A DNA stretch of 64,000 nt from Haplodiscus bocki (taxonomy: Eukaryota): assembly GCA_965655095.1 (NCBI GenBank), contig CBFHFQ010000299.1:1-64000 (forward strand), given 5' to 3'. Positions 15,958 through 44,897 of the stretch are shown here, piece after piece. The position numbers were made by a program, and so were the translations under genes. The notes under the pieces are model-generated. The model ran no database searches. It was given only the letters and a program-made list of their open reading frames with translations, and was not told the origin of the DNA. Positions within the stretch are counted from its first letter, which is position 1; every line of letters begins with the position of its first letter.

Positions 15958-15969
15958 TATAATAAATAA

Positions 15970-17291: not shown

Positions 17292-17297
17292 AGGAAA

Positions 17298-19330
17298 ATG
17301 AGATCGCAGATAAATCATTTCAAATATTTCTTACTATTTAAATAGAGACGCAAATATTGAACAGCCGCAAATGTGAAATTTGTTTTATTGATGTTCATAG
17401 AGCATCTTATATCAAACAATTGAAAAGTATAAAACACTTAGAAAAAAAACAAAATGAAATGATTTTTCCAGAATGGTTATTTAGAGAATTTCTTGAAAAT
17501 CAAAATAAAAAAATAAATAATCGTAAATCATTAAAACGAACAGCCAGGGAAATTAATCTGCTGAAGGATACGCAATTGAATAAAGAATTACCTAAAAAGA
17601 TGAATATTCCATATTTTTTTACTGATGAAAATTTGAAAAAGGGATTCAAAATTAATCCAGATATTCAACACATTAATCATACTAGTTCTAAACTAACTAC
17701 TACACCAATTTATCCTGAATTTGGAGTTGAAGTTCGTTATGTTAATGAAATCATAAAAGAAGTATCTGTCATTTCTGCTAGACTAATAAATCAATATAAA
17801 CTCAGGAACGAAGCAGTTTTTTCAGCAACATTTGATAAACAAGATGAAGATAGTCAAGTATTAGATGAAACAGAATTATTCATTAATTTGAATTTCAATC
17901 AAAAATTAACAGAAAGTGATCTTGATAACATTGACATTAAATCTCCAATGGAATATCAGATACAACAACAGGAAATGAAAGATTCTGGACGGCGATTTCA
18001 TAAAATTAATTCGATGACTTTATATTTCTATCAAACAGGTATAATGAATAATGAATGGTTCAAAATATATTGAAAATCCTTTGAGATCAAAGGCTATCTT
18101 GATTTTTGAAAAAATGGTAAATATTGTTTTATTTGGTCTATATTAGATAGTCTTCCTCCTTGTAGTAATAATCATCCGAATAGTGTTTCGAATTATAAAC
18201 ATTCTTTTGATGAAATAAACATTCAATGTTTCGCTTTTACTAATGGATTCAAATGTAGTGATGTTCACGATTTTAATGAAATAAAAAATTTGTCCATAAA
18301 CATCTTTGAATTAAACTTTTGTCAACATCAGAATAAATGCAAACATAAATAATCCCTATTGAAGTTAGTAAAACTGAATCAAATAGAATTGTTGACTTGA
18401 AAACTTACAAAAATATTTATGTTCTAATTAAAAAATTAAATGTATTTTTAGGAGATCTTCACAAAACTTTCAATTGTAGGCAGTGTTTGAATTCATATGC
18501 AAGTGAAAATATGTTAATGTTACATAAACAAAATTGTGGTGAGGATATTATAACTACTACTAGAATATCATCTGATTCTCATATTTATTGGAAAAATCAT
18601 TTTCATAAAAATCCAATATAATTTATGATTTATGCAGATTTCGAGGCTCATATTGAAATTTTTAAATCTAGCATACGTGATAGGACAACTAATATTTATA
18701 AGCAAAACCCAGTACTTAATGGTTTTCACATATTATCTGGTATAGAACATGTTTTAAAAAGTGGTTATTATAAATCTCCTCTAGGTTACAATAAAATGAA
18801 TTGGTTTGTAAACTAAGTTATGAAATTAGAATAAAAGATGGTTTTCTATTTTAAAAACACTGAGAAAGACATCATTATGACTGAAGAAGATGAAGAAGAT
18901 TTTCGAAATTTTAATACTTGTCCTTTTTAAATAAAAATATTGAATCTGATAAAGTAACAGGTCATTGTCAATAAACAGGTAAGTACAGAGGCCCAGCTCA
19001 TAGCAAATGTAATATTAATGTTACTCAAGATAAAAGCAGTTTTATACCATTTATAATTCACAATTTTAGTAACTATGATTGTCATATGTTTTTCAAGGGA
19101 TTGGTTGATAAGAAAATGATAGAGTAAAGGTTGATAATACTCCCAAAACAAATGAAGAGTTTCTGTCAGTAACATATGGTTGTATTAGGTATATAATTAG
19201 CTATCGATTTCTATCAAGTAGCTCAGATTCATTATTTAAAACATTACTTGATAATAGTCATAAAACAATGAAAGATTTGAGAGAAGAAATTGTTGATAAT
19301 GAAGTAATCTTAAATATTGTTAATGAATTT
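17298..19330 (+). pseudogene. Protein-primed DNA polymerase B, N-terminal half only (copy A)
   Basis: Zn finger CEIC..H, CFIWSIL, ExoI YADFE, EndoVII-like HC..TGKYRGPAHSKCN, ExoII HNFSNYD; stops before the polymerase motifs. Confidence 0.9.
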
Positions 19331-19344
19331 TAAAAAAAACATTA

Positions 19345-19820
19345 CATTGATAAAGAAGTTCGTAGGCAAGATCATCTTTTTTCAACTAGATTACCATATG
19401 CTGATAAAAGGATAAGAGAAAAGTGGATGAATACGGTTAATACTACATGTAATTCAACAGAAGATATGATTAATAAGTTACAAGAATTGAATGGAAAAAC
19501 AGAATTAAAGATTTTATAAAAATATAAGTAATTATTACGATAATATGAATATTAAGATGGATGAAGATCCTTTTGCTAAAAATGGTCAAGGTTTTAGCAA
19601 AAATTATCATGAAGTATTGTTGTTAATGAAATTTCTACTGACTAAGCCTCAAGTTAAGAATATGAATCTTAATTAAAAAGATATATATTATACTGTTATT
19701 AAAAATAGAGGTGAAAGAGAAATTGTTGATAATAAAAATGAAAATGATTATAATAATTTTAATGATATTATGCCTAATCATTACATTGGAATTAAAAGTA
19801 ATAATGAAGAATTAAAGTAG
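19345..19820 (+). pseudogene. Diverged duplicate of the 3' part of the 16463-17291 gene
   Basis: FSTRLPYA, TEDMI.KLQ, YHEVL.L.KF..TKPQVKN are shared with 16800-17291. Confidence 0.8.
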
Positions 19821-19826
19821 AGAAAA

Positions 19827-22800
19827 TTGAGATCTCAGATAAATCATTTCAAACTTTTTATCCCATATAAAAAGACACGCAAAAAGAATACCCGCCAATG
19901 TGATATTTGTAATGTTGATGTTCACCGAGCATCATATGTAAAACATTTCAGAAAAAAAACTTTAGAAAATGAAAAGCAAATTGAAATGATTATACATGAA
20001 AGTTTATTTCAAGAACCTATTGAAAACAATATTTTAAAAATAAATTATCCTAAAACATTAAAACAAATAGCAATAGAAAATATTAAACTGGCTGATAAGC
20101 AATTAAATAAAGAATTAGCTAAAAATATGATTAGTTCTTATTAATTCACTGATAGAAATTTGAAAGTGGGATGCAAATTTATTTTAGATAGTCATCATAT
20201 TAATCATTCTAATTTTAAATTAACTATTACACCTAATTATCGTGAATTTGGAATTGAAGTTCGTTATATTAATAAAATCATAAAAGAATTATCTGTTATT
20301 TATGCTAGATTAATAAATCAATATAAATTCAAAAATCAAACAGTAGTTTCAGCAAGATTTGACAAACAAGAGGAAGATAATCAAGTATTAGTTGAAACAG
20401 AATTGTTCATCAATTTAAAAATCAATCAAAATTTAACAGAAGGTGATCTTGATAATATTGACATTAAATCTCCATTAGAGCATCAAATACAACAACAAGA
20501 GAAGAAAAATTCTGGATGGAGATTTGATAAAAATATTTCAGTGAAAATATATTTTTATAGAACTGGTGAATTAAATGGTTCAAATTATGTTAATGTTTCT
20601 TTGAGATCAAACGCTATCTTAAATATAGAAAATATTGAGTAATATTGTTTCTTATGAGCATTATTACCTTTTATACATCCTTGTAATGACAATCATCCGA
20701 ATAGAGTTTCAAATTATAAACAATATTTTAATGAATTGAACATTCAAGGATTTGATTTTACAAATGGGTTCAAATGTAGTGATATTCATAAATTTGAGGA
20801 ATTAAACAATTTATCGACAAACATGTTTGAATTAAACTTTGATCAAGATCACAAAAAGTGGAGAAATAAACCAAACCCTAGTGAAGTTAATAAAAACGAT
20901 TCGGGCCCAGTTACTGATTTATTAATTTACAAAAATCATTATGCTCTCTTTAAAAAATTTAATGTATTTTTAGGAGATCATCATAAAATTTCTACCTGTA
21001 GAAGGTGTTTGAATTCATATAAAAGCGAAAATATGTTAAAGTTAAATAAACAAAAATGCGGAGACGATAATATAACTACTATCAAAACTTCAAATGAGTC
21101 ACATCTTTATTGGAAATATCACTTTCATAAGACTCCATTATACTTTAGAATATATGCAGATTTCGAAGTTGAAAATGAAAAAGGTAATTCTAGTTTAGGT
21201 AATAAAGCAACAAATATTTATAAGCAAAACCGAGTACTTAATGGCTGTTACATAGAATCTGAATTGGAAGATGTCTCAAAAAGTGAATATCATAAATCTC
21301 CCATAGAATATAATAATGTTGGTTGGTTTGTGGATGAGGTTTTAGAACTAGAAAAAAAGATGGCTTTCAATTTTGAAAACACTACTAAAGATATTACTAT
21401 GACAGAGAAAGATGAGAAGTTTTTAAAATTAATAACAATCGCCGATTTTGTGAAAAAGGAATTATCGATAATAAGGTTAGAGATCATTGTCACTTAACAA
21501 GTAAATACAGAGGAGGGGCTCATAGTATTTGTAATTTTATATAACACAAAAACAAAGTATCTTCATCCCATTTAATTTTCATATTTTTTCTAATTACGAT
21601 TGTCATATGTTCCGCAAAAAATTAGTTGACGAAAAGAACGATAAAGTTAAATTTGATATACCTAAGACAAATGAAGAACATATTAGTGTTACTTATTGTT
21701 GTCTTATATATATTGATAGTTACCGTTTCTTATCAAGTTGTTTAGATTCCTTAGTGAGGACACGGTTGATAATGATGAAATATTGAATATTGTTAATGAA
21801 TTAGGAGAAGATAGGACTATTGAAGATTTGAAATAGGATTATCCGGATAAAATAGGGGACTTAGAAGAAGCTTTACTCAATTATATAGGTGAAAAAGATT
21901 CTAAAATTTTAAAAACGGAACTTCCTGATAAATGGAAGTATTTAACTAAAAAAACTAGCTTATCCATATGAATTTTTCAATTGTATTGAAGATTATCAAA
22001 AGTCTGTTGACAATTTAAAGAAAGAAGACTTTTTCAGTAAATTAAAAAAGAAATGTCCTGATGATGAAGAGTTAGAACGAACAAAAGAATTTATTAGAAG
22101 AACCAATACTAAAAATGGAGAAGAATTAACGCAAAAATATTTAAGAAGCGATGTATTTTCACTTACATGTGCGTTTGAGAAGTTTATAAAAAAATCAGTT
22201 AACGAATCTGATATCAGTCCTCTAAATTGAGTTAGTTTATCTGGTTATAATTGGCAGTGTTGTTTAAAATATACAGGAATAAATTTACAAACACTTCAAG
22301 ATAAAGATTTAGTTTTAACATCAGAAACTAATTTACGTGGTTGAATATCATCAGTAATAGGAAATAGATTTGCGAAATCAAATGAAATACAATAAAATAA
22401 TTTATGCGGATGCTAAGATGTTATATGGTCATTCTATGAGTCAACTTTTACCTTATGATGAAACTGAAATGTGGCGCGATCATTCAGATCTTTGTATGAA
22501 TAAGTTAGAAGAAATTTTGAATACTCCTGATGATAGTGATCATGGGTACTTCCTTGAAGTTGATTCAAAATATCGCGATAATATAAACGAAAAAACGAAA
22601 ACTTTTCCATTTTGTGCTGAAACTAAAGTTAATCATAAAGATAAATATAATGATTATATGAGAAAAATAAAACCTAAAAACTATATAAAAGCTATGAGTC
22701 TAATATGTGTTTGGATTGATGAAAAGAATTGTTTAAGTCAATATAGGTTGTTAGAATTAGATGCTACACATGGTATGGTAGTTGATAAAAATCATGAAAA

Positions 22801-23670
22801 AATTTCGTTTAAACAGAGTAAGTGGTTGGAGAAAAATAAAAATTTTAAAACACAAAAGTGAAACAAGGCTAAAAAATATTTTCACAAAGAATTCTATAAA
22901 TTACTCAACAACGCATTTTATGGAAAAACAATGGAAAATATTCGTAATTGTTTGAAATTAAAATCTTTTTAAACAGATTTTACAAAAAATATTATTAAAC
23001 AACAATCTAAATTGACTTTCAATGGAATTCTCAAATCAAATGGAAATTTTGGTAGCTATACATTCATCCAAAACGAAATTTTTATGGCTAAGGCCTAGTT
23101 ACTTAGGATTTCCTGCAATGAAATTGAGTAAATTACACATGTATGAGATATATTTTGATAAATTACAACCATATTTTGGACAGGAAATCTTACATTTACT
23201 TTATATCGATACTGACAGCTTTATATTAAGTATAAATACAAAAAATTTTATCAAAGATTTAAAAAAATTCAGAAGATATAATTCATTTCGTTCACTTAGA
23301 TGAAAATCATGAACTATTCAGTAAAAAAAATAAAAAAGTAATTGATAAATTCAAAATTGAAACACCTGAAAATATTTGGATAGATGAATTTGTTTGTCTA
23401 AGAGGTAAAATGTATGGATTTAAAAGTTGGGATCAGAGTAAAAATTTAAAAAAAGGAGTTTCTAAAACATATTGAAAAGGAATTAAATTTGAAGAATATA
23501 AGAAAAGTTTAGATGGAGAGGAACATGAAAAAAATGTGAAAATTAATTTATTCGATCACTTAACCATGAAATATGAAATGAAGCTCCAACGAGTAAAAAA
23601 ATCTATGCTATCTCAATTTGATGATAAACGATGATATACAAATGAAACTGAAATTCTACCTTGAAATTAG
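19827..23670 (+). pseudogene. Protein-primed DNA polymerase B, full length but decayed (copy B)
   Basis: YADFE; VRDHCHLT; motif A YADAKMLYGHSM; motif B KLLNNAFYGKTMEN; motif C YIDTDSF; terminal FDDKR. Confidence 0.95.
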
Positions 23671-23671
23671 T

Positions 23672-24209
23672 ATGATTAAAAGTTTTTAAAAATAGAAAAA
23701 AATTTTGAAAAGACTAGACACGGTAAAAATATTGATAAATCTAAAAAGTATTTTTAGGAGGAGAAAGAAATGTACGAGGTCATGATAGAGCTCTATATAA
23801 AAAAAAGAAATCTTATACTTTCACGACTTAGTAGTGTACAAAAAGTCATATGACATTAGTCGCAAGGATCGCACATTTTAACAAAAAATAAAACAACAAA
23901 AAATTCATAGCAGATTTATCCTACGCAGGGTTGTTGTCTATTTTATTTCGTTTTTTATATAATTCATACATATAATTGAATTTCTATAAATTAACATAAT
24001 TATATAATTGAACATATTTGTTCCATTTCACATAAATATATAAATTCACTTAATTTTTATTATAACTTGGGCTACCCCATTGATAAGTAAATATTTTTTT
24101 TATAATTATACCCCTGTGTAAGGACTCTGCTATGAATTTGTTGTTGTTTTAAAATTTTTAAAATGTGCGGCCGCCGCGTCTGGTGTCTTGTGCCTTTTTG
24201 TACACTACT
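23672..24209 (-). repeat. Right TIR of Polinton 1
   Basis: Inverted copy of 5314-5875, ending ...tgtacactact. Confidence 0.9.
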
Positions 24210-25095
24210 CGTACAAATGTATTTGAAAATTGAATAAAACACATCAATTTTAAGAAAAACACTCCGAGAAAGTTGCGAAAATAATCTCAATTTGACCGCT
24301 TTTAAGGACTGGCGTCCAACGGGGGGAGGTGGTAAAATTCTCGTTACTGCTGGTAGTGGAAGTGCGGAAGGCGGAGTCAACAGAAAAGATCCCTATGAAA
24401 AAATGTGCATTTCTCGACCAGCGAGCGAAATGATTTTGAATATTAAGCGCAAATTTTACAGTGCCGTGGATCGGAAACCTAAAAACAATAACTGATAATA
24501 TTGTACTTAGATTTTCTGCTGTATTGTGTTATGTATTTTTGGCCGTGTGAAATGAGTTTCTGAAATTTGGCTTCCAAAAACTATTTTTCAGTTTCGTCTC
24601 TGAGACCGGTTATTCAATTTTGTCCCTATGAGTAGTCACCTCGCACCCACATCATTTTATTTTAGATCTCATTCAATTTGACCTTATTCCAATTTTCTGT
24701 CGCTTCGGAAATCGCGAATTAAACTTTGCTTCTCAACCAACCAGTCAACATCAAGCACTTTTCTTGCGCGCGCACCTTCGAACCAGCTATCGTAACTTAG
24801 TGAGACAAGAATTTCAAAAAACTGTTACAAAGGCACAGTAACAAGTCTCGAGCGTAGTGGGAGCACGCATACCGCCAACTGAACTTGTCAAAATTTCAGA
24901 TCTTCTCTCATTAGATCTTAATATTTAGATCTTTTTCCACCCTCCAATTGTCGAGCCTACTTGAAAAGAAATAAGATCTAAAACATCATTGTACCTGAAA
25001 TACAAATAAATAAACAATACATAATAAAAATACATAATATCAATATATAAAAACGTAATTTATTCACTCTTCACTGAAAACTTTGTGTAGAGAAT

Positions 25096-25245: not shown

Positions 25246-27605
25246 CTATATCGTCGAGATTGGATTGTGCGAGTTGAACCAGTGTGTTTTAATTCTTTCT
25301 ACTGCGGGGGTGTTTGTGGGAAAAACTGTACATGTGGTGGAGTGAAGCGGTGATAAGTTGCCACCACATAGTTTGCATGTGCAGGTAGTGGGGTTAGGTG
25401 TTCTTTCTGTGGGTTTGGGCTGACGAAAGCATTTGGTGGTACAGCATAACTTGTTATGAAGAGCGTCTGAGTATAGTAGGCCAATTAATTTTCTTGTACC
25501 GGTTGGGGCATTTTTAATACTCAGCGGGTCAGAATTTTCAATTAGGTCCGTCAAATGATGGTTGCTCGAATAAATAGGGAGGCTTGCCCACTATTTGTAG
25601 AAAGTACCGCGGGTTTTATAGGACTGATCCGATAGTACATCATCAGATATGTCGTTCAGGCAGTCAAGTCCATGAAAACCGATCGGGTGAAAAACGGATT
25701 TAAGCAGGCGAGAGGCAGATTCAAAGTCAAATTTTCTTATCGGCGTTGTTTCGTTTAAAGCCCCAATATTCTCCCTTACTTTTATCATGTTTCGCTCTAT
25801 TTGGGAATGCGGGCTGAGTTTGGTGTGAAGCGCGAGACCAAGGTAGACGAAACATTTTCTAAAGGTTAGGGGAACATTTCTGTAGAAGAAGTTTATCTGC
25901 CTGTTGCGCCCAGCATTTCGGAATACTTGTACCACAGTCTTCTCAATTTTCACAGAAAAGTCATTATAATCACAATTTACTGATAGTTTGTTTATTGCGT
26001 TTTGGAGCTTTTGGGGGTCATTTGAGCCTAGTGTGAGGTCATCGGCATAGGAAATCGCTGTGCAGTGTGCATTTTCAAGGTAATTGGATAAGTCTGCAAG
26101 AAAAATAGAGAAGAGTAGGGGTGATAATTGATCACCTTGAGGGACTCCACTTGTTTGTTTGATTTTCCTCCCTTTTGAGTGGCCAAGACGTACTTGAATT
26201 TGCGCATCCTTGAAATATCACTGAGGACTGCTAAAATCTGGCTGGTACAACCGAGTTTGGAGAGTTTCAGCATCAGTTTTTTCCGACTGATACAATCGAA
26301 AGTTTTCTCGAAATCTTTGAAACATACGTAAAATGGGGTTTTACTGGAAGTGCAAAAATTTATATCGTATGGTAGATCTTGTATTTCTGTTTTTGTTGGT
26401 TTTGTGGGCGGGAGCCATGTTGAGAGTCTGGGAGTATAGCGAATTCGTCGCACCACACGTAAAGCCTTAGATAAATAATATTTTTATACATTTTGTATAG
26501 GTTGGTCAACAAGGCAATACCTCTGTATTTGTTCGGGTCCGTGATACTACTTTTGTTTCTGTATAGGGGTATGATTTGGCAATGCCTCTATTCATGTGGA
26601 ATTTGTGTGTGCTCTCGAAAAACAGACAGTAAACAGGAGAAACAGGTATCTAATCAGCGTAAAGGAGGGGGCTCGCAAGACTTCGTTTGTAATACCGTCG
26701 ATTCCAGATGCCTTTTTGAGTTTTTCGGCTGGAATTGCGTCGCAGATTTCGTTCTCATTTATGGGCCAAGTGTATGAAGTGTTCGGGTTTGCTTGAAATG
26801 CCAAGTAGTCATGGTTTCTATGCGGTTCAGTTATCAAAATGTTGTCGTCACCTGGTTTGGCCTGATATAATTTCTTAAAATGTTATTCCCATGCACCTGC
26901 GGTCACTTTTGGAAGTGGTTCCCGGCCCATGTTGGATTTGACGAATTTCCACAAGAAATTCCGGTCTTTGATTACATTGTCCAGGAACACTTTCTGTTGT
27001 TTCCTGTGCCATCGGGATAAAGCTGCTGTACAAATTTGTTTGTATTTTCGTTTTAAAAATGCCATTTTTTGTAGGTCATTCCAGTATTTGAATCGGTCAA
27101 AAGCTTTTTTCGCTGTGTAACATTCTTTTTTAAACCAAGGTTTAGATTTTCTTCTGGGAGTTCTGATAGAGGAGCAATATATTCCATTTTTTAAATGTCC
27201 GAGAATACAATTGGGTGACCGAGGTAATTTGGCAGGGGGAGTAGTTCATCAAGTTTTTGACAGTCAATTTTCCTAATGGGTGTTTTTGCGGTTTACAGAA
27301 GGTTATTGGTTGTACTTGTGAATTCAAAGAGGAGCATGGCTTGTTTGGTGAAATCATTCCTTTCCATCAGTAATTATCCGAGTAAGTGAGGTTTGTTAGA
27401 GAAGAGGAGGTCGATCGTGCTACGGCCATTTCGTGCAAAGTAGGTGTAGTTATGAGATTCGTTCAACATGTGAGGTTGAAGCCTTCACTTAACTCTATGA
27501 GTTCACGTCCTCGTTAGTTGCCTGAGTCTATGTGGCAATTAAAATCACCAGACATAATTATTGTATCGTTTCGTGGGATATTGACTAGACAATTTGAAAT
27601 ATTGT
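25246..27605 (-). pseudogene. LINE ORF2: APE C-terminal part, reverse transcriptase and Cys-rich tail
   Basis: GDFN, STIDL, KASGIDGI, QGDQLSP, YADD, FVYLG, CKLC; frameshifted. Confidence 0.9.
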
Positions 27606-29213
27606 CGTGGCCGTCTTCAGGGCCAGATTTTTGTGTCATCTGGTTGTTGAAGAGGCCCGCTTTAGGATGAGGGTCACTCTGGGAGTCATCCTCAGTCGTT
27701 CCCTGGTTTATACTAAATGCGTTCCGGGCATCTCCAGAGTGGTTCCGGAATGGCCCTGAATGAGTGGGTTCATGAGAAAGTCGTCTTTTACATGGGTAAA
27801 ATGAGTAGGGAACGTGTCGCTGTACAGGAATTATCCTCAAAATATAAGAAATATCCGTATGTATTCCGTATTGTATCCGGAATCAAATTTTTGTTGGGTT
27901 TTCCGGAATGGTTCCGGAATGGTTCCGGAAAGGCTCCATAATGCGTTCCTGAGATGTTCCTCAAAGTTTTTCCTTATTTATTGCTGCTAACTTTCTTTTG
28001 TTTCGGGTTGCCATTTTCTAGGGAAAATACCGATCAGCTGTTAATATTCATTTATCTTTTTGCTGAAGGAAAATCAATTTTAGGTTTTAACAGTTTCCAA
28101 TATTACAACGAAGTGAATTGACAATACTGGATAATATCATCAGTACTCCAAATTAATAACAACACTTCTGTTTTTGTACTTTCATTTTTCCTGTTTATAC
28201 TTTTTCTTTGGCGGGAAATATAATTATTTACACGCCAAGTCAAGGTACAAATAGGGAAAAGTAATTGCATTATTAAAATATCAAAGTCTGAATGCCAACT
28301 CTGGCGGGAAATAAACACCTTTTCCATCCATTGCTTCGCTCATAGGACGCGTCCCTTCAATCTTTCGACAGAAAATGGACGGTCCTAATCCGTTGGAGAT
28401 GGATATCAAAGTGTTTATTCCCGCGCCGACATATTGCTTTTAAACAAAATAATATTCATTTCATAATTGGAACAATTGAATATTTCGTTAATTGGGATAA
28501 AATAAGATATATAAAATTAAAGTAGCAAGTAGGAAAAACTAAAAATGATGGTAAATTTAAAGTATTCATTGTATTTCATGCACATATCATCAATATTCAC
28601 TCAGTAGTTCATAAGTCTCTACTCTTTAGAGATGAGGAAAAACTAGTATCACTACTAGTTTATACCTCATTCATACGAGTAGCGACTAGTGGTTTCCGGA
28701 TAATTCCGTATTCACTAGAAGTATTTGTCTTCAGAAATGAAGAAAAACTAGTAGAAATACTAGTTTACTCCTCGTTTAGACGAGTAGCTACGAGTGGTTT
28801 CTGGAAACGTTCCGTAGCCACTACTAATTGAGGCAGGCTAAGATCAAATGAGGAAAGATTCCGGAATCACTCCGTATTCACTACAGCACTGCAGCACAGT
28901 ATAGCTATACGAATGACTGTGACGTCACCAGACTAGTAGCGAGGGAAGGCGTACGGAACAAATGTTCACTCCGCTGCTAGGTAGAGTAGCTGCTAGGTAG
29001 GTACGTGTCCGTTCTGTAGCAGTTCCGTCCCATTCTGGATTAGTACACGGGAGTGCTACGTATAAAATACGTAGAATTTACATGAAAATTAGGAGAAATT
29101 TGAAATATGAAGTTTTTTGTGTTTTATTTACAGTCCATCACTTCCCTTGAGGGTCCGGGAATGTTCTTTTCTTCTGCAGCTATTCTCCGCAGGCTTCGCA
29201 AGTATACTGCGAC
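27606..29213. mobile_element. 1.6 kb non-autonomous insertion in the LINE APE domain
   Basis: Flanked by direct repeat aaatattgt (27597-27605 and 29214-29222); removal restores LINE frame ...NLDNIQYNISNCLVNIP...GDFN; ttccgg-rich subterminal repeats; no convincing ORF. Confidence 0.8.
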
Positions 29214-29282
29214 AAATATTGTATTGAATATTGTCGAGATTAGTATTTGGAGGAGAGTTTATGCAACAAAGAGATGTGTGTA

Positions 29283-29524
29283 TGTTATTTGATCTCACGA
29301 GACAACGGTGTTGAGAGATACAAAAACTAAATTGGGAAAAAAGGACGTGAACAACTCAACTTGCTTCGATAAAATTCAACACCACCAATGAAAAAGGTTG
29401 TGAACAAATTTGCCAGCTCCAACAATTCCGACAAACATGAATTGCTTGGTTTTGCTGAAGTGACAATGAATGTGACTCAATTTAACATGGAATAAATGAA
29501 CGAACATTTCAGAAATCATAAACA
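29283..29524 (-). repeat. 3' LTR of BEL element
   Basis: TG...CA ends; about 11 mismatches to 35833-36074 by manual alignment. Confidence 0.93.
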
Positions 29525-29577
29525 TACTCCGCTCCTTGGACTATATGAGTTCAATAATAAAGTAATTCAGATATACA

Positions 29578-30384
29578 ATGTCTAAACGGACGACGCTCTC
29601 GAAGGCCACCATGAGGGATCCCAAGGAGCACATGAATGAGCTGTATGAGGAGCAATCGAAAGGAGAATGGTGCACGTCTGCACTTCGGTGTTTTGATTCC
29701 TTCGGGGAGACAGACTTGTCGAGGCCCTGTAGGATCAAGATCGGGGTGCACTCGATTGACTCCTCGGTGCCGGGGATCGCCTCTGTTGGCAAAGCCAAAG
29801 TCACGCTGCACTATGACGAGAGAAGAGGTCGCACTGTCCAGGACCGCACCTTTGACGGAACCCAGTGGATTGAGTTCGAGTCTCCCTTTGACGAAGCCCT
29901 GGGTTTCCGGAAGAAAAACGACGTGCACAAGCTGGGCAATGAGCTGCTTGTCGGGTTGACTGGCTACAGTTTCCGCGTCTTTCATCAAGATATCAAGCCA
30001 CCACAGTCCGCGGTGTGCACTGTGTTTGGAGGCCGGAAGCTGTGGTTGTTCAGAGCGCCCGGGAGCAGAGACGCAGAATGGGTTGGTCGAGTAGCGTCTT
30101 CCTTGACCTTGTCAGACGTGCAGCAGTTGATGAAGGACAGGAGGAAGGGACCGCGGTTACTGTCGGCCATTCAAGAAGATGGAGAGTCAAAATATCAGCC
30201 GTATGGTTGGTCACACTGTGTACTGACTGTTCCATCTGCACCAACTTGTTGACTGACACTATCAGAGCTGCTGGTGGACGACAAGGAGCTCCAGCGCCGC
30301 TACAATGAGCTGAGTCATCACTCCTCGGTAAGGGTGAAGGGAGAAGATGTGGCGGGCCCGAGAACCGCAAAGGGGTCAAGGTGA
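29578..30384 (+). pseudogene. Extra antisense gene inside the BEL element (224 aa open; 268 codons if TGA 30250-30252 is a secondary stop); product unknown
   Basis: Strong G/C third-position bias in this frame, which continues past the TGA as LTLSELLVDDKELQRRYNEL...GSR* to 30384. Confidence 0.7.
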
Positions 30385-30539
30385 CAATTAATGTAAGTTC
30401 CTTTCTGTTTGAATCAAAGATAGAGCTTCAGGTCTCAATAACTGAATATAGCGCTGATTGAGAACTGATAAGGTAACGTGATTAACAGAAGTTCATTATT
30501 GAATGATAGCTGGGCATTTATGTAACCATAAGTGGCAAT

Positions 30540-33500
30540 ACTCGTAATTTAGAGATTGGTCGATTAATAAAGCCATTTTGGGTTTTAACTCTAGCAACTC
30601 GAACAAGATCATCATTACCTGTGTATACTGCAACAACTCGTCCTAGAGGCCAACGTAAAGGTCGGTGACGAAAACTAGGTCATTGTTTGCAAGATTTGTC
30701 TTCTTGTGCTGCCATTTTCTTCGAATTTGGTTAGTGAGTAAATTTTCCCTTGTCCATCTCTCCCACAATCTGTGCAACAAGAATTGTATCAGTCGCCAAC
30801 GTTGTAAACCAGGTACCTCAGTATCATCCTCATTGCTGCTTGGGAGTGCTGTGGGCGGAGAGCTTACGAGGAAGTGACCCGGTGTGAGAACTTGAACGTC
30901 ATTCGGATCGGTCGATAATGGCGTAACAGGTTTTTAATTTAGTATTTGCCAGATCTGTGCTAGTATAGTCGCTAATTCCTCAAAATTTAGTACTATTCTG
31001 CCCATTGGTCTTATTAGGAGACGCTTCATTCTTTTTACACCTGCCTCCCACAATCCACCGAAGTGGCGAGCACTGGTTGGTAGTGTGACCCGCGAAATTC
31101 CTTTGTTAGCACAATAGTCTTCTAAGTTATCTTGTCTAACTTGTAAGCGCTGTATTTCCATCAATTCATTACGTGAGCTGATGAAATTAGTCCCGTTGAC
31201 GCTATATATGATCTTTGGGAGTCCTTTACGACTTGTAAATTGTCGAATTGCAGACAAACATGCTTCCTGGGAAAGGTTGAGACTAATTCTAAATGTATTG
31301 CCTTCGTTGCAAAGCAGACGAACAGTGCCACGTATGCTTTCCGGACATCTTCTGGACCATGTCGAATTGTTGACGCCCTGCGAAGTCCAATCCAGTATGA
31401 GTAAATGGTCTTGAAGGAGTTATTCGTTCCTCAGGAAGATCACCTATCTGTTGAACTGTTGCTTTCACGGAAAATCTCTGGAATCTCACACACTGTCTCA
31501 CGTATTGCTTGACTTTACTGCGGCCTGCAGGTAACCAATACTGGTGTTGAATGGCGCATAAAGTTTTATGTGTTCCAGAATGGAAGTTTTCTTCATGAGA
31601 TTGCCTGATGATCAACCAAGTGAAATAATGACATTTTGGAAAAAGTATCGTAAATTTTTTGTCTTCTGGATTTTCTGACTGTGATAACCTCCCCCCAACA
31701 CGATGAAGGCCTTTATCATCCACGAAGGGTGTGAGGTTTCACAATGGGCTTGATTTATGAACTTGACCGTTCGAAACAATGTCTCGAATTTCTTGGTCGA
31801 AACTTTCTTCCTGTACGTCTCTCAGAATTTCGAAGTGTGCTCCTTGAATTTCTGGAACTGTCAGGGGACCGCATTGTGCCCTTTTTAAACGTTTCATAAG
31901 TTGAAGTGCTCGATTTAGGAAAACCCAAGTTCTGATCAACCATTTTGCACTTGAAAGTCTTTGGAATTTTATAGGGCAATTTAGTGCTTGCATTGCGCTT
32001 ACACTTGCTGTCTTCTTTAGCTCAAGGTTGAATCGCATGATTGAAACATTCTTGTGCGGCCAAAATGCTACTGGTTTGGCAAGCCATTCAGGGCCGGACC
32101 ACCATAAACTTGATTCCATTAAGCTTAGGACAGATGTAACTCTTGATGCTATATCTGCCGGGTTGAACTCGGTAGGAACATGTTATCAATCGCTCGGTGA
32201 GATCACATCTATAATGTCTGAAACACGGTTTGATACAAATGTGTTCCAACGTCGAAGTTCGCCAGATATCCATGCTAAGGTTATCGTTGAGTCGGACCAT
32301 GCATGTATAGAAGCTAATTTGAATCGAGTTTTGGAAATCGCTTGTAAGCATGATTTCATGAGTCTGGCAGCTAAATGTGCTGCGTACAGTTCTAACTTCG
32401 GAATACTGATTGACTTCAGAGGAGCAACCTTCGTTTTGCATGCTTAGAGCTTTTTGGTAACTGATCCATCTAGTTTTTCTACTCTAGCGTAGAGAACAGC
32501 TGCATAGGCCTTTTCTGATATGCCTGCGAGTATATGCAATTCTATGTTTTTCTTGCTTTCTGAGCAAATAAATCTGAGAAATTGTAAAACATGTAGTTAG
32601 TTCAACTGCTCATGAGCTGCTTGCCTTGTTTTTTCTAGGTCGGCGGGTAATGTATCGTCCCATTGTATGCCTTTTATCCAAGTTGCTTGCATCAACCTTT
32701 TGAGGGTAATTGTGATCGGAGCTATCCATCGCAAAGGATGGAAGATTTTCGATATCTCTGAGAGTAGTTTTCGCTTTGCGCTGCCTGTATCAAATCTTCC
32801 GTTATGTCTAATAGAGAAAACATCTCTTGAGGGATACCACACTACTCCCAAAACTTTGATCGACTTATCTTCTTTGTTCAACTCTAGAACGTCTTTGGTC
32901 GCAAGGAGATGTGGTGGAAGATCTTTGAGGACTTCAACATTTGATGACGACCACTTCGGCAAGGAAAATCCCCCACCAAGAAGTTTTTTCCTGCAACTCA
33001 TTTCGCAACTTTTTCGCTTCGTCAATTGTTTCTGTTCCTGTGAGAAAATCGTATACGTAACTGTCCGAAAGAATAACTTCATCCACCAGAGAATCTCTAT
33101 CTGCAACACTTCGAAAAGACCTGATTGAGTGGTAGGATGACGAGCGAATTTCATTTGTTACATGAGTCATCCGTAAGTGTTGCAACTCTTCGTTCGGGTC
33201 AGGTCTCCAAACTAATCGATGAAAGTCCTTGGCTTCTTTGCTCAACGCTATTTGCCGGTACATTTTTTCAATGTCCGCTGACTGCATGTAACTGAAAACG
33301 TAGAAGGATTCCGGAGATGTCGTCTTGTTGCTTGGCACCCACCATGAGATTTCCATTGAGGGAATTTCCGTTGGTAGTTAACGCTGATCCATCGAAAACA
33401 ACTCTCAATTTCGTCGTTGTTGACAACTCTTCCATTACAGCATGATGCGGTAAGTAGAAAGATTTCGAAGGTACAACTGGCACCTCCTCTTCTGGTATGA

Positions 33501-35726
33501 CCTCCATATGTTGCATAGCCAAGAACTCTTGATTGAATCCGGTATACCTTTGCTTCAAGTTGCCATCTTGCTGGAACTTCCTTTTCAACGAACTGAATCT
33601 GTTGAGAGCCTTTGGTAAACGATGTCCCAACGATTTGCTATCTGGTTTGAATGGAAGGGATACTACATACCTGCCATCCTCTCGACGTGTAGTAGTCTCA
33701 ATGAAGTGCCTTTCACACTCTTTTTCTTCCTCTGTAAGTACGGAAGCACAAGGAACATCTTCGATTTCCCAGAAATTTTTGAGCTGATCGTTGACATCTG
33801 GCTATAGAACTTGAGGATGCATCGCTACTGCTTCAACCGGATGAGCGGATGAACTGACGTATTTCCTTGTGACGACCCGTGCAAATACTGATTCGCGATA
33901 GAACAATTCTTTGGTCTCTTCAATTTTTCCAGCCATCGTGAGTCTTTCATACACGTCGTTCCCAATGAGAATGTCTACTGGACCGGGCTGACAAAATTTT
34001 GGGTCTGCAAGTTTCAGACGTTTTGAATGCTTGAGTGCTTTAGGATCCAATGGTGGGGAAGGTAGTTCCCTTGTGACCTTGTCTAGTACAAATGCTTCGA
34101 CTAGTATGACATGATCATCACCAAGAAGATTGAAACTGACCTTGTACTTTGAGAGTGTGCTCCCCGACGCACCTATGCCGAATATTTGCATCGAAGACCT
34201 CTCTTTCGCCAGTCCCAAGGTTTGTACGCAATATTGTGTAATGCAGCTCAACTGCGCTCCAGGGTCTAAGAATGCACTACACTTGATTTGTTCGTGGGAT
34301 CCAGTTTTATTTATTGATACCAGCGCTGTGGCAAAAATAAATTAAGAATTTCCGTTGATTCCCAGCTTGGATTGCGCAATTTGATTTGATACTGTTGCTG
34401 ACTGGTTGCTATTGTCAACTTCGGAGGATTGAGCCATTGCAACATGAGCTTTTTCATTACTCAGCGTTTCTCGGTGAATCAAGGAATGACGCTTTCCAAG
34501 AGAAGTTCGGCAGACTGACTTGCTTGGGCATTGATTGATCATGTGAGACGATCGTAGACAATTGAAACACAGCTTCTTTTGCTTCACCAAGTCAACTCGA
34601 GCAGCAACATCGAGAGATGTAAATTCCTGACGATTCTGCACCTTGTGATTTCCTTGGCAATTTTGGCAAATATCGGTCTCTGTGACACTTGCACCGTAGG
34701 CTTGACCGCGTTCTGGTCCGGATTGAGTATGTCCATACCCTCTTCTAGCATTTTAGCCTTTATTTGCGCTATTGACAATTTTCGTTTCTGCGGGGAGCAT
34801 GCTTTTGAGTTTTGCAGAACAAGATTCTAGCGCACGACAACGCTCTGACAAGAAATCTGTCATCTGTTGAATTGTTTGAAGATCGTCGCCTGCATGAGCT
34901 AGTCCCCAAGCCTTCTTTGATTCTGAGTCGAGCTTCTCACCGTTGTGGTAGACTAGGATTGCATCCCCTTGATGTACAGGCACACCAAATATCTCTAATG
35001 CTTGCATTTGTTCTCAAAATGTTTCAAGAAGATTTCGCATTTCTTGAGCTGTTTCACCCTTCATGACTGGAACTTCCAGCATACCTCTGATTTGGTTTCT
35101 AACAATCAATCTAAGGTTGGCATACCTTGTTTGAAGTGTTTTCTGGCTCCCGCATAATTTGCATCTGTAATTGTCAAAGGGCTGATAATTTTGGCTGCAT
35201 CTCCTTTCAACGATGCCTTAAGATATTGCCATCTCTGAGCATCCGTTAAGGTTTCGTTGGTGTGCACCGAGGCATTGAATAAATCCCAAAAGGAGTTCTA
35301 TGATAGATACTCTCCGGAAAATACTGGAATTTTCATTTTTGGTAATTGGAATTCTTGACATGTTTGTCGTCTCTCTTTTTGCATTGCCTGCGGAGCCTGA
35401 TTGACGATAGCCATTGGCTGATCTGCTTTTGTGAGCAGTCTCGTGAGCAGAAGGATCATTTGCGTAATGGCATCGATGTTCTTTGATGATTCTGTCACCT
35501 CTGCTTCCGATGCATCGTCGTCTTCAATCCTTATTTCAATCTCTTTGACTAAATCTGCTATTAGGCTTCTCTTCGACTCAAGTGCTGTTTTCAAGCCAAA
35601 CAATTCATTTCGCTGTGCTGTCGGAACTGCTGAAAATTGCGCTGCTTTGTTTGTGTAACGTGTTGCTACACCTTTGTGCGAGGCACGTGAGCGTACTAAT
35701 TTCCTTTTCCTTTCGTGGTCTTCCAT
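30540..35726 (-). pseudogene. BEL gag-pol polyprotein
   Basis: LPKMKIPVFSG gag, CFNCLRSSH knuckle, FLDPGAQ protease, KLRVVFDGS and ADIEKMYRQI RT, RNase H, GLDFAG / SVNGTNF / HFGGLWEAGVK integrase, WPLGRV tail; many frameshifts. Confidence 0.95.
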
Positions 35727-35832
35727 TTCTGTGTAGAACTAATTTCCAACAGGCAAATTGGAAGTAAGAAAGATTGGCTGAAGCTTGACTAAATAAGCAC
35801 TGAGTGTCCGAGGTAACGGCGGACCACAGACA

Positions 35833-36074
35833 TTTTAGTTGATCTAACGAGAAAACTGTGTTAAGAGATACAAAAACCAAATTGGGAAAAAAGGACGTGA
35901 ACAACTCAACTTGCTTCGATGAAATTCAACACCACCAATGAAAAAGGTTGTGAACAAATTTGCCAGCTCCAACAATTCCGACAAACATGAATTGCTTGGT
36001 TTTGCTCAAGTGACAATGAATGTGACTCAATTTAACATGGAATAATTGAACGAACTTTTCAGAAATCATAAACA
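35833..36074 (-). repeat. 5' LTR of BEL element
   Basis: Direct repeat of 29283-29524; PBS-like sequence adjacent on the minus strand. Confidence 0.93.
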
Positions 36075-36374
36075 GTGTTTGTTGTATGTCAGGTAAGGAG
36101 ATCACGAGGGAGTCAGTGGAGGAGTGCCTGGTAATAAATTTAGAGCACAGGTGTGTTTTGATACAGATTGCCAGACCTCTCCTTGGACGACCATGTTGTT
36201 GTTTCACTGCTGGAACGTCAAACGCTAGGAAGTTCGGGATTACTGGTTTCTGAATCATGAGTGTTTCACAGAGTAGGAGTATGTCGTACTCATCGAGGTA
36301 ATTTGATCCATTTAGTTCCAGGGTTGAGTTTAGTTCTTCTACATTCCAGCTCAGTATTTTCAGTGGGATTTTTG

Positions 36375-37127
36375 TCAGTTCAGTGTTTGAGGGGTTTCGA
36401 CAATGCGTCCTGATTTTATCCAGAATTGTTTAAGAGGGTTTGATTGTCGTAGCTCAATCGGTTTATTTCGTGTTTCAAATTGCAAATTCCGCTGTTCTGG
36501 AGTTAAGTCGGGATTGATATAAATACCATCGAATCCAGTGTCATCTCGTAGCTTTTTAGCTTTCCGGATAAGTTCCCACTTTACTTTTGGGTTTGGCATT
36601 TTCACTAGTAGGAGCTGAATATTTTGTTTGTTCGTTGTTCCGATAAGATCGATCTTCACCGGGTCTGTATCTGGTTCGAGAAATGAGAAAACATCATTTA
36701 TTTTTTCTTCTGCTTCGTGTTTCGGCAAATTTTTGAGACCACGAAATTTAACATTACATTCTTTCTCTTTTTGTTTTCTCGTTTCAGTTTCAACATTTGA
36801 GAAAAGTGTTGCGCTGTTTGCTTCGGACATGGTGTGGTCTTTCTCTTCCAAAGGTTTTATTTTCGAACCCAGATTTGAGTTTTGTGGTAGATCCTCTGTG
36901 ATAGCTCTTACGTCCAGTTGTAAGTGCTGGAGATTGTTCATGATTTGATCGAGAGATTTAATTTTGGTGAAGTTGCAGTATTCACAAAGGAAGCCTTTCA
37001 ATTCAAATACTTCAACCTTGCCATCTGGTATCCATACTGAAGACCAACTTCCGTAAATATTAAAGCATTCCACATTCTGTTGGGTACCTTTTTTGTCCAT
37101 TTTTGGTGGCATATCTTTGTTTTTCAC
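36375..37127 (-). CDS. LINE ORF1 protein (degenerate PHD-like N-terminus, coiled coil, RRM-like domain)
   Basis: Open 250 aa frame with FLCEYC, KECNVKFRGL and IYINPDLTPEQR directly upstream of the APE domain. Confidence 0.8.
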   Translation of the reverse strand: MKNKDMPPKMDKKGTQQNVECFNIYGSWSSVWIPDGKVEVFELKGFLCEYCNFTKIKSLDQIMNNLQHLQLDVRAITEDLPQNSNLGSKIKPLEEKDHTMSEANSATLFSNVETETRKQKEKECNVKFRGLKNLPKHEAEEKINDVFSFLEPDTDPVKIDLIGTTNKQNIQLLLVKMPNPKVKWELIRKAKKLRDDTGFDGIYINPDLTPEQRNLQFETRNKPIELRQSNPLKQFWIKSGRIVETPQTLN

Positions 37128-37145
37128 TATCGTTTGGATCTAGTG

Positions 37146-39399
37146 GGGACCAGGAATAATATCTAAAGGAATAATATCTAAAGTCTCAAGCACGGGAATA
37201 ATAACTAAAAAACCGGGAATAGTATCTGAAAACGGGAATAAGATCTAAAGTCGAGAATAAGGTCTAAACTTGGAAAACGTCAGAATCGACCAAAATCAAC
37301 CCAAATTACGAGAATAAGATCTAAAACGTCAGAAATGACCAAAATACGTCCAGATTTTGAGAATAAGATCTAAAAAGTCAGAATTGACTAAAAAACGTTC
37401 AGATTTCGAGAATAAGATCTGAAGCGCTAAACCGATCAAAATATGTCTAAACTCACAGGCAAAACGGAAGATACTCGAAAAATCAATTGAGCGCAAAACA
37501 GAATTATTATGACTCAGAGCTCAAAAACTTTTGCAATTTTTAAGTCAATTTTTGTGTGGCCTTTCAGACATTCATCTTCTTCAATGCAGATTGTGCTCAT
37601 CAAATGCCCACATGGATTCGCACAAAAATTAATTTTTTCCAATTCACACGCGCAACATTTTGTACAGTCTGTCTCATCTTCATCGCATTCGATTTCAACG
37701 CATTCGAGGGGATCGTCGGAGGTCATAAGGGGCACGTCATTTTCAATATTTTCCTGCCTTTTTTCCTCATCTGCCATTTTTTCGAAAGATTTCTCTGATA
37801 CGTGGGAGACGATTTGTAGAAATTCTTGCGCTGTGTAACGTCCCGTTGCCAATTTTCCCTCAGCTTCGCTAATGAATTTATCAGAAGCTTTAGATATTTT
37901 TCTCCTGTACCTTATTGTTAATATGCCCTCTCTCAACTGATTTGCCTCCAATTGATAAGCCTTTCCAACACTTTTCGGCTTAAGAAAAAACCAGACATTA
38001 GGCCGTTTCCAACCAATTCGTTTGCCGAAAGAGCTATGGAAGCCCTCGACTTCGGAATTAGTCCTGCGGAATTTACCATGAACAGAGAGCGTTTTTGGAT
38101 CCCTTGCTTGAATCCATTGCTTTTCAACATATGAATAGAACGTTGCCATAGCATCAAGAACATTGATTTCCAGTACGGATGGGCTCAACTCATAGAGAAC
38201 AGAATCGGTTAAATTCGTTGGAAGTAAAGGCAGGGCCATCAGTTGTTTGACCCAGCTAACAACTTCTTTCACTTTCACACATGAAAGCCCAAGCTGCCGC
38301 CATTTTCGATAAAAACTTTGGCGGTGATGGAACAAACATCTTTGCAAATTGGAACCAAATACAAATTTGATGGATGAAAATAGGGCAATCTCAAAATCAG
38401 AAAAAGATGTTTCTGGATTGAATTGTGGGGCCAATGATCTGATTTTAGGAAACACAGCATCATATTAAAGACGTGTCTTACAAGACATGAGGACATAAAA
38501 CACCGGTGTTGTTGTGGCCAAAGCAAGACAATGAATAATCAGTCGGGTAGAAATCGACGGGAACTGTTTTAAAAGTTGCATCAACATGAATACTGTGGAT
38601 TCTTTTCAAAAACGATAAATCAATATCGGCCAGAAATATTAGCGCGAATTCATCGTTGGCGGAAGCGAATGTTCTGTAAAAGATATTGCCATCATTTGTC
38701 CCGAAATCAGGGTTTTTCAACAAATTATCAAATTCCTCAACTTTGCAGGGAATAAGTGGGAAATTAATTGTTTGCTCTTCTTTTTCTCATGATTGACAAT
38801 ATTTTTGTAAAAATACTTATGTCAACATTTTCGGGGTTGATGTTTTTGTTATAAATATCCCTCGGCGCGAGAGTTGATGTTTCAGACTCGTTCTTTATTT
38901 TTGCTTCAATTTTTTGTTTTTTCGATCTCCGCAAAACTTTTTGGGTGATTCTGTTTTTGATTATTAAAAAACTTCCCGAATTCAATATAGGCTGTACCGG
39001 AACAGTCTTTTTTGTAGAGACCACACCACAAGTTGGTTTTATTTTTGTATTCATTGTTTTTTTGAATACATATACCCATCACAACAAAAAATGTTGGAGC
39101 CTTTTCGACGACCTTCAATTTTTTCATAGTTCATGATGCCCTGAAAAACTCAAGAAAATTATAGAAACAGGTATCGGATAACATTATTAATATCCAATAT
39201 TCCCGAAAAAAAGTACCCAGAAACAGGAAAGAGATCTAAAATTTAAAATATCGTCCTCAAAAACAGGTATCGAAAAACAGGAATAATATCTAAATCTTTA
39301 GATAAAATTCCCGAAAAATGATTCCAGCCATGTTAGTTTTAGATATTATTCCCGAATTTCGTTTATATATTATTCCTTTAGATACTACTCCGTTCTCCC
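37146..39399 (-). mobile_element. Mutator-like (MULE) DNA transposon, ~2.25 kb
   Basis: TIRs ggg(g)accaggaataatatctaaagg / cctttagatactactccgttctcc(c)c; approx. 9 bp TSD gatctagtg/cgtctagtg; subterminal gaataagatctaaa arrays. Confidence 0.88.
37514..39127 (-). pseudogene. FLYWCH-MULE transposase with C-terminal RING-like finger
   Basis: FLYWCH-like LWC..KKDCSGTA..NH; DATFK; SDFEIAL; CLFH; RTNSEVEGFH; tail CCAC..PCGH..STIC..CLKG; several frameshifts. Confidence 0.88.
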
Positions 39400-42279: not shown

Positions 42280-43480
42280 CGGCATTGGTAGTGTCATTGA
42301 ACTTGCCACGGCCAAACAAGTGTACAAAAAAGTTGATAATTTTACTAATTGACTAGTTGGGGTCTTGCAGAAGTTTTCACAGTTTTAACCTAAAGGCCTG
42401 TCTCAAAATAATTTTGGTTTATTTCATCCTGGTTACAAGGTCCATCTTCAGCTGTTGCCTTTGGAGTTTTGGGGTTCCTATGTTTTGTTCTCTAATGCCA
42501 AACGTGCAAGTTTTGAGTTTTTGGTCTGAATTAGTCTACCGGTTAATAGGTGAAACTCATGTTTTCGGAAGGACCTTCATTTTTTGTATTTTTCTTTGTA
42601 ATCGTGGATCTTTGAATTTGCTCCGACACCTGGTATACCTGTCAATGGCATTGACCATGTCAACACCAGCCGAGACACCGTAAAAGTTGAGCATGTCAAG
42701 ACTTCACGTTTTAATTCTGGTGTTGCAAAGTTCCAACGGTTTTGATCTGAATGCTTTCTTCAATTTTTCTGCAGTTTATTTCTTGCTAGTTACAAGGTCC
42801 GTCGTTGAATGCTGCCTTTGGGAGGCGTTTGTTTCATGGGGTTGTTTGGGTGAGGCTAGAAGTGTATTTTATTTTTTTTTTCGTCTGAAATCCGCAAACT
42901 TTTTCCCCTTAGAACCCATGTTTTCGGGAGTTCCTTCCTTTCTTTGTACTTTTTGCTTTTATTGATGGGGCTTTGAAATTGCACCTGAACGTTTCAGCCC
43001 TGCCAGCATCAGTGACTTTGTCATCACCAGCCAAGACTACATAAAAGTTGAACATGTCAGGACTTGACTTCTTAATTCTAGTCTGCAAAGTTCCAACAGT
43101 TTTATCCTGAATGCTTTTTTCAAGTTTTCTGCAGTTTATTTCTTGCTGGTTCCAAGGTCCGTCGTCTTTTTATGCAATTAGGGGCCACGTGTTTCACGGG
43201 GTTGTTTGGTTGAGGCTAGAAATGTGTTTTTTTGAATTTCCAAATTGTTTACCGTTAAAACCCATGTTTTCGAAAGGTACTTCATTTTTTGTACATTTTG
43301 TTTGTAATGATGGGGTTTTGAATTTTCACCTACACGTCATAGCTCTGCCAGTGTCAGTGACCATGTCATGGCCAGCCAAGACTGCAAAAGTTTTGAACAT
43401 GTTAGGACTTGGATTCTTAGTTCTCGTTTTGCAAAGTTCCAAAAGATCCGATCTGAATGTTTTTCTTTTCAAGTTTTGAT
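42280..43480. repeat. Diverged tandem repeat, ~350-360 bp unit, ~3.3 copies
   Basis: ccagccaagac..gaacatgt..gcaaagttccaa block at ~42666, ~43027, ~43372, with a weaker copy at ~42310. Confidence 0.85.
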
Positions 43481-44334: not shown

Positions 44335-44800
44335 GTTTACTTGATTGAGCCAATTGTGACATGTAAGGCGAAAAGGATTATTTTAATCATTGCAAAATTA
44401 ATCTACATATTGTTGAATTTGTGAGATTTTTTTGAAAAATTAACTATGCATTTTTGATATTCGATGTTTTACATAAAAACCTATGTTTATATTGCGTTGA
44501 TGTGAAAAAATTTTTATTGTTAGTTTGTTTATATGTAAAAAAATAAAACCATTTTCTCGAGCAACTTTTAATTTGTTGTTTAGATCGTACAAATCCATGT
44601 TTTTACCTCTGACTGTAAACTTAATCATGTCATTATTTGCGATAATTTTAAATTTAATGTCATAAATATATTCATTTTTAAGTTTATGAAAATAATTTTT
44701 GTGACAGTCTCTAAAAAAATTGTCTAATATAGAATCTGTTTCACCACAAAGCGGGTTATCAAATTTTTATTTTTTAACAAGACATAAATCGCTTTCATTT
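44335..44800 (-). pseudogene. Hypothetical Polinton 2 protein
   Basis: One frame of ~150 codons with few stops (DSILDNFFRDCHKNYFHK...LKVARENGFIF), containing ORF 44440-44628. Confidence 0.45.
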
Positions 44801-44863: not shown

Positions 44864-44870
<7 letters not shown>

Positions 44871-44894: not shown

Positions 44895-44897
44895 AAA

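Follow-up and report, generated by a model that had tools for sequence, protein, structure and literature searches.

An antisense JmjC-type oxygenase gene in a BEL/Pao retrotransposon family

Capture of epigenetic enzymes by mobile elements is already known, and a JmjC gene in a BEL/Pao retrotransposon adds to it. Chromodomains and PHD fingers are also reported as retrotransposon captures, a paper on fungal TET/JBP transposons is said to possibly link JmjC-type domains to fungal DNA transposons, and to our knowledge few transposon-encoded counter-silencing enzymes are known. DNMT capture (PMC5890265) and CopiaMBD (PMC6673714) illustrate, in the portions of these reports drawn on here, how host epigenetic machinery is taken up by retrotransposons. 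Extra ORFs are described in rotifer LTR elements in the corresponding part of PMC5408684, and orchid Ty3/Gypsy elements are described as encoding an AlkB (2-ODD) RNA demethylase as ORF2 in excerpts of PMC9289625. In the sections of PMC11244446 used here, giant viruses endogenised in Amoebidium carry reader-less KDM4-like JmjC genes that are proposed to counter chromatin silencing. In Grande (gene23), RIRE2, Retand and Boty, an antisense ORF occupies the interval from pol to the 3' LTR; the functions of these ORFs are described as unknown in the relevant passages of PMC7264820. The words JmjC and jumonji are absent from the main text of PMC5890265, PMC6673714, PMC9289625, PMC5408684, PMC6431247 and PMC11963269, and no description of a JmjC gene in an LTR retrotransposon was found in the literature searched, which lay mostly outside subscription journals, Repbase reports and supplements.

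The window analyzed here, a stretch of 64,000 nucleotides from Haplodiscus bocki (contig CBFHFQ010000299.1), contains a complete but decayed element of 6.8 kb (29283-36074) with gag-pol on the minus strand. Paired LTRs, a short target duplication and the order of its domains identify it as a BEL/Pao LTR retrotransposon. The 3' LTR (29283-29524, minus strand) and the 5' LTR (35833-36074, minus strand) are each 242 nt long and 95.5% identical (11 mismatches in 242 nt, JC distance 0.047); the TG...CA ends are intact in the 3' LTR, and the 5' LTR has one mismatch at its inner end. The left target-site duplication (29278-29282) matches the 5-bp right copy (36075-36079) at four of five bases. A primer-binding-site-like stretch that starts with TGG lies 6 nt inside the 5' LTR (35807-35826, minus strand), and a polypurine-tract-like stretch adjoins the 3' LTR (29525-29539, minus strand); both were recognized by eye. 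Gag-pol (30518-35726, minus strand) is broken into more than a dozen frames. BEL/Pao-type Pfam matches are present in 6 of 14 minus-strand fragments scanned and follow the order gag, protease, RNase H, integrase: DUF1759 (E = 9e-13), aspartic protease (3e-4), Peptidase_A17 (8e-13), Integrase_H2C2 (2e-11) and DUF5641 (6e-9). The reverse transcriptase (RT) fragments gave no Pfam match, and this domain was recognized by eye.

The surroundings are rich in decayed elements. The BEL insertion site is apparently the endonuclease region of a minus-strand LINE (motifs partly assigned by eye), which is itself decayed and split by the BEL element into two parts, 25246-29282 and 36075-37139. RVT_1 is matched at 25591-26214 (E = 5e-17), an ORF1-like frame occupies 36375-37139, and near 28000-29100 the LINE seems to be broken by some 1 kb of other sequence. 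A low-GC block (about 26%) at 5306-24217 has 570-bp inverted repeat ends (5306-5875 and 23675-24217; 83%), a Pox_A32 packaging-ATPase match at 6826-7176 and a double-jelly-roll (DJR) capsid match at 9721-10356; it is a decayed Polinton/Maverick-like element, about 19 kb long, in which 2.5 kb are duplicated internally. Another low-GC remnant of Polinton-like type at 44000-54000, in opposite orientation and 72-80% similar to the first, has weak matches to DNA_pol_B_2 (46937-47320), DJR (50344-50886) and AAA (52504-53010). Minus-strand frames at 37514-39078 with a cysteine-rich end look like a MULE-type transposase by eye and have no Pfam match. Two degenerate tandem arrays, repeating about every 360 bp, lie at 58400-62300 (about 11 copies) and 42553-43477 (2.6 copies) and hold no long frame.

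A gene antisense to gag-pol occupies the interval from the pol stop (30518-30520) to the polypurine tract, on the internal side of the latter, and this position makes it part of the reverse-transcribed unit. The original prediction described an 807-nt frame opposite to gag-pol that starts close to the 3' LTR boundary. Such a frame is indeed present on the plus strand at 29578-30384, with an ATG at 29578 and a terminal TGA ending at 30384 (268 codons plus stop); a 53-nt spacer on the internal side of the 3' LTR separates it from the ATG, and ORF and LTR do not overlap. The GC-richness and third-position bias attributed to the frame are likewise borne out. Its GC content is 0.549, compared with 0.426 in pol and 0.32-0.35 in the LTR, spacer and 3' flank, and the limits of the GC-rich block coincide with the start and end of the ORF. 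GC at codon positions 1, 2 and 3 is 0.54, 0.46 and 0.64 (permutation p = 0.0005), and GC3s is 0.64 compared with 0.36-0.44 in six gag-pol fragments. The lone internal stop is also as described, a TGA at codon 225 (30250-30252); each of the other five frames contains 5-12 stops across the same interval, and one stop or none in any of the six frames is reached in 0.24% of 5000 base shuffles. The ORF is a real coding frame, and chance origin is ruled out.

The protein resembles solved structures only distantly. A Pfam scan of the window protein returns nothing at E 0.1, and a single-sequence PDB search yields three chance antibody matches only (E = 1.2). Its identity emerged only through language-model features, distant homologues and profiles. 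An ESM Atlas feature search with the window protein leads to JmjC/cupin clusters with scores of 0.90-0.93, and a search with the homologue P0015 is similar. A search of 1.84 billion representatives gives 24 matches at E <= 0.001. The Pfam JmjC model (PF02373) is matched at E <= 1 in 9 of 18 homologues scanned (P0003, E = 0.21) and passes its curated cut-off in one of the 18, P0032 (25.8 bits versus 24); several homologues also match Cupin_8. When a profile of 20 family members is compared with PDB sequences, the best nine are all PHF8, KDM7A, PHF2 or ceKDM7 (E = 9.7e-7 to 9e-4), followed at a distance by JMJD6 (E = 0.3) and KDM2A (0.5). A 29-member profile places the same nine sequences on top. 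JMJD5, FIH and TYW5 are not listed by the family profiles against PDB up to E 1 or 10.

Predicted structure leads to the same fold. An AlphaFold model of the window's own 224 residues is soluble and beta-rich (pLDDT 75.5, pTM 0.75). A fold comparison, proposed as a check with the original prediction, was run by Foldseek on this model, and the 42 matches listed are JmjC proteins only; PHF2 is best (E = 1.6e-5), and many JMJD5 and JMJD6 chains follow at E = 2e-5 to 2e-4. The best 10 matches in a VIA structure search are JMJD5, FIH, PHF2, ceKDM7A, JMJD6, KDM2A, TYW5, KDM2A, JMJD3 and JMJD7, with Z scores of 9.2-11.7. JMJD5 (Z 11.7, rmsd 3.8, 180 residues aligned), PHF2 (Z 11.3, rmsd 3.9, 183 aligned), FIH (Z 11.3), ceKDM7A and JMJD6 (Z 11.1) lie within one Z unit of each other; AlkB-family proteins score 6.5-7.3 and KDM4A (JMJD2A) 7.4. 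The model of the sister protein P0003 is poorer (pLDDT 63.2), with VIA Z scores of at most 7.6 and TYW5 and FIH first, and JmjC proteins are still within its best 12 rows. Identity to solved JmjC chains is 10-17%. Among viral structures the best match is mimivirus L613 (E = 2.3e-4), weaker than the cellular JmjC proteins.

Other assignments and sources were also considered. A resemblance to 30K-type viral movement proteins, noticed by eye, is unsupported by the Foldseek and VIA searches. An env-like gene is rejected, as the original prediction had it: env is a sense-strand membrane glycoprotein, whereas this ORF is antisense and its model is a soluble, beta-rich domain with a JmjC fold. NCBIfam gives no meaningful match for 25 family members scanned. 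No relative is found in GTDB genomes with patterns suited to close relatives (46 pattern matches, none confirmed), nor in 50,697 phage records.

The active site is recognizable by alignment with PHF8/KDM7 chains. The window copy has an H136-x-D138 metal-binding motif (29974-29991, plus strand, together with R133), K154 (30037-30039, plus strand), which aligns with a conserved Lys of PHF8/KDM7, and H213 (30214-30216, plus strand) as the distal metal ligand. Across 37 homologues, excluding the low-complexity match P0027, the residues are kept in most proteins that span each site: H136 in 23 of 26, D138 in 24 of 26, K154 in 24 of 26 and H213 in 18 of 19. Position 133 lies three residues ahead of H136; 23 of 27 homologues have Arg there, where PHF8/KDM7 have Thr. 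The conserved Lys and Thr positions of PHF8/KDM7 presumably bind 2-oxoglutarate, and the Arg in place of Thr suggests that the co-substrate pocket may be atypical. Neither a PHD finger nor any other reader domain is detected by Pfam in the ORF or in 18 homologues scanned. Fused or longer forms are absent among 5778 candidates of 547-2000 residues, which is weak evidence, with the range of 470-546 residues less covered. The termini of the protein are basic. The apparently intronless gene is one for a stand-alone JmjC-type Fe(II)/2-oxoglutarate oxygenase.

Presence in sister BEL copies was checked on predicted proteins compared with the window by tblastn; the 18 homologues that are at least 70% identical possibly come from a genome other than that of the window, and the contigs behind them differ in length wherever a length is given. 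Eleven of these 18 close relatives are linked to the BEL LTR, spacer or pol; the remaining seven begin no earlier than the ORF and are uninformative. An in-frame upstream extension through the 53-nt spacer is seen in nine of the 18, six of which reach the LTR (P0003, P0004, P0005, P0009, P0013 and P0014). Linkage in 11 of 18 relatives indicates that the JmjC gene travels with the BEL element, and the ORF is almost certainly a JmjC gene carried by this BEL family. The original prediction of an accessory gene stands, and sister copies carry the gene. Two amendments apply: the gene called unknown is identified by profile and fold search as a JmjC oxygenase, and decay of a CGA codon as the origin of the internal TGA is unsupported, since none of the 14 homologues spanning codon 225 has Arg there.

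Some sisters lack the catalytic half. In three of the 18 close relatives (P0014, P0016 and P0021), the sequence leaps from about codon 125 to position 30510, in the antisense of the end of pol. The junction is at or adjoins a 9-nt direct repeat (29930-29938 and 30508-30516), which points to a microhomology deletion that removes the catalytic half and spares pol. One deletion form in three records suggests either spread without the enzyme in cis or recurrent deletion. P0021 has a second deletion, in which the equivalent of window position 30578 is joined to 31968 and the integrase region is lost, and P0038 apparently has another internal deletion across the active site. The JmjC-carrying BEL family seems to generate deleted derivatives. 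By comparison, the whole ORF is read through in P0003, which represents a cluster of nine sequences, and in P0004.

Evidence for selection depends on the depth of comparison. In P0010, identity to the window protein is 39/43 in the core and 58/118 in the N-terminal half (p = 1e-6), and in P0015 the values are 44/64 and 28/115 (p = 1e-8). In these alignments, conservation between subfamilies is focused on the catalytic core, which shows selection on the JmjC family, though not necessarily within BEL elements. The divergent homologues under selection are known as proteins without genomic context, so that selection may have acted outside BEL. In the close sister P0003, differences are evenly spread (39/43 in the core and 74/84 in the N-terminal part), and such an even spread among close sisters would be as in neutral decay after insertion. 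The family is deep; many of its members are fragmentary and its core is kept, and an unrooted tree of 20 members, built from family members only, contains several well-supported subfamilies. P0022-P0025, P0028-P0033 and P0036 form a wider set of small and divergent JmjC proteins with 27-45% identity in the core. Several of them are fragmentary, some share a basic C-terminal motif, and the set may mark other mobile elements.

The window copy itself no longer retains the full JmjC fold. Codon 225, where the premature stop cuts it short, lies where the last predicted beta-strand begins, and the part lost beyond it includes a conserved C-terminal helix and the basic tail; homologues run on beyond this codon, and in the P0003 model the last strand (E249-257) is followed by a helix. 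The stop truncates the fold and gag-pol is broken, so that this copy is most likely a pseudogene.

What intact members of the family do may be approached from their nearest relatives. Suppression of silencing is a good lead. The enzyme may be a trans-acting, reader-less histone lysine demethylase, nearest to KDM7/PHF8 by sequence, that counters silencing; we regard this as a leading proposal with a nearly even chance of being right. An antisense promoter, for which the 3' LTR itself or the sequence next to it is a candidate, would produce a short plus-strand transcript that ends near a candidate polyadenylation hexamer (30566-30571, plus strand) overlapping the last pol codons. The LTR and its vicinity contain no TATAAA on either strand, and AATAAA occurs twice ahead of the ATG (29491 and 29556); both observations count against this transcript model. 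The opposite orientation would give the enzyme its own transcript, and the intronless, GC3-rich ORF would have been captured from elsewhere. Small and with basic termini, the enzyme could enter the nucleus and remove repressive methyl marks of the H3K9me2 or H3K27me2 type from a presumed histone substrate, and the resulting weaker silencing of the BEL family would benefit the element. Action in trans would fit the copies that appear to have spread without the catalytic half. Several lines of evidence favor demethylation, including the profile preference for KDM7/PHF8 and the precedent of reader-less giant-virus JmjC genes, and KDM7A structures in the Foldseek list bear H3K9me2 and H3K27me2 peptides, according to their titles. 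Against it are structural scores tied with those of non-histone hydroxylases, a P0003 model that ranks TYW5 and FIH first, the Arg at 133, the lack of a chromatin-finding reader domain and only 10-17% identity to solved chains. The negative Pfam scan of the window protein, the single homologue above the curated JmjC cut-off, selection that may have acted outside BEL and the even differences among close sisters also weigh against it.

The tied structural scores, together with Arg at the usual co-substrate Thr position, make a non-histone hydroxylase a real rival, if one that we consider rather less than likely. The protein would then be an active JmjC enzyme like JMJD6, JMJD5, JMJD7, FIH or TYW5 that favors retrotransposition by modifying a host factor of RNA processing, translation or small RNAs, a tRNA or a protein of the element. 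The small, reader-less JmjC architecture fits this, the VIA scores of JMJD5 (11.7), FIH (11.3) and JMJD6 (11.1) are tied, and JMJD5 and JMJD6 supply many of the Foldseek chains in the range given above; Cupin_8 matches in several homologues and Arg at 133 agree with this reading, as does, in the excerpts of PMC9289625, the precedent of an RNA-acting 2OG oxygenase (AlkB) in orchid Gypsy elements. The sequence profile is at odds with it: JMJD6 ranks five to six orders of magnitude behind KDM7/PHF8, and JMJD5, FIH and TYW5 are unlisted up to E 1 or 10. The Thr-to-Arg difference and the PHF2-type chains among the top Foldseek matches would suit a protein of JmjC fold that merely binds or is a poor enzyme, and that acts by shielding methyl-lysine marks or by titrating host readers and demethylases, yet about 90% of the homologues that span these sites retain the metal triad and Lys, as expected of an enzyme. 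Alternatively, the antisense RNA may be the product, given that antisense transcripts may regulate elements through dsRNA according to the passages of PMC7264820 used here, but the codon bias points to function at the protein level. We view either form of this non-enzymatic explanation as very improbable.

The gene could also be a passenger, a cassette from another mobile element, a virus or a host retrocopy that is amplified with BEL without helping it. Its codon usage is foreign to pol (GC3 0.64 versus about 0.4), the catalytic half is missing in three sister copies, close sisters decay evenly, and Polinton-like remnants lie within the same window. An inverted repeat with 11 of 12 matching positions brackets the gene (left arm 29550-29561, right arm 30492-30503); an equal repeat is reached in 4 of 400 shuffles, for a pattern chosen after the fact, and its significance is doubtful. 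A separate nested element with its own target duplication, a possibility raised with the original prediction, was looked for, and the inverted repeat is all that appears: its flanks match at no more than three of four bases, and the cassette has neither its own long terminal repeats nor a transposase nor a cleanly duplicated target site. Given the repeat, the cassette may first have arrived as a small DNA element. The sisters that read through the whole ORF, P0003 with its cluster of nine and P0004, and a deep family with a kept core also speak against a passenger, which we consider unlikely.

Taken together, the demethylase reading extends to a broader and tentative proposal, one that we hold to be plausible but short of an even chance. 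A BEL lineage would encode its own histone demethylase, expressed antisense, that erases repressive methylation in trans, with deleted copies riding on the enzyme of intact ones; the divergent homologues (29-63% identical, many fragmentary) would belong to a wider, unrecognized JmjC family of mobile elements whose active site contains an Arg. With a JmjC oxygenase of its own, a BEL/Pao family would supply a concrete enzyme that can be purified and used to ask whether retrotransposons erase host heterochromatin marks. If the substrate is not a histone, the family is still a new and divergent JmjC family with an unusual active-site Arg.

Among known systems, the closest in sequence are KDM7, PHF8 and PHF2, which provide the best profile matches (E of about 1e-6), align at the HxD motif, the Lys and the distal His, and share the fold. 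The BEL gene differs from them in lacking a PHD finger, in its length of about 268 residues, in a structural identity of 10-13% and in having Arg for Thr; it is apparently intronless and resides in a retrotransposon, and the kinship is known from sequence and predicted fold. It may work like a KDM7 but is better not classed as one, given the missing PHD finger and a place in the KDM7 tree and an activity that are putative. The Amoebidium giant-virus genes are likewise borne by mobile elements and free of reader domains; those genes, in the sections of PMC11244446 used here, are KDM4-like, multi-exon and part of a giant DNA virus, whereas the BEL gene is nearer to KDM7 by profile, intronless and part of an LTR retrotransposon. 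The orchid Gypsy elements offer, in the excerpts of PMC9289625, the parallel of an LTR retrotransposon with an extra Fe(II)/2OG oxygenase ORF. Their enzyme is of the AlkB class, acts on RNA m6A and sits in a 25-kb plant Gypsy/Tat element, whereas the present one is of the JmjC class and antisense in a 6.8-kb BEL/Pao element. The DNMT and MBD cases, as presented in the portions of PMC5890265 and PMC6673714 drawn on here, concern DNA-methylation writers and readers in LINE, DIRS, Gypsy and Copia elements, unlike a JmjC protein. Grande gene23 and the antisense ORFs of RIRE2, Retand and Boty share the position and orientation of the BEL gene, and that of Grande has its own promoter and a nuclear product; these are plant or fungal elements whose proteins are without clear enzymatic identity in the relevant passages of PMC7264820. 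A JmjC oxygenase at the same place in a BEL/Pao element would give an enzymatic identity to antisense ORFs of this class.
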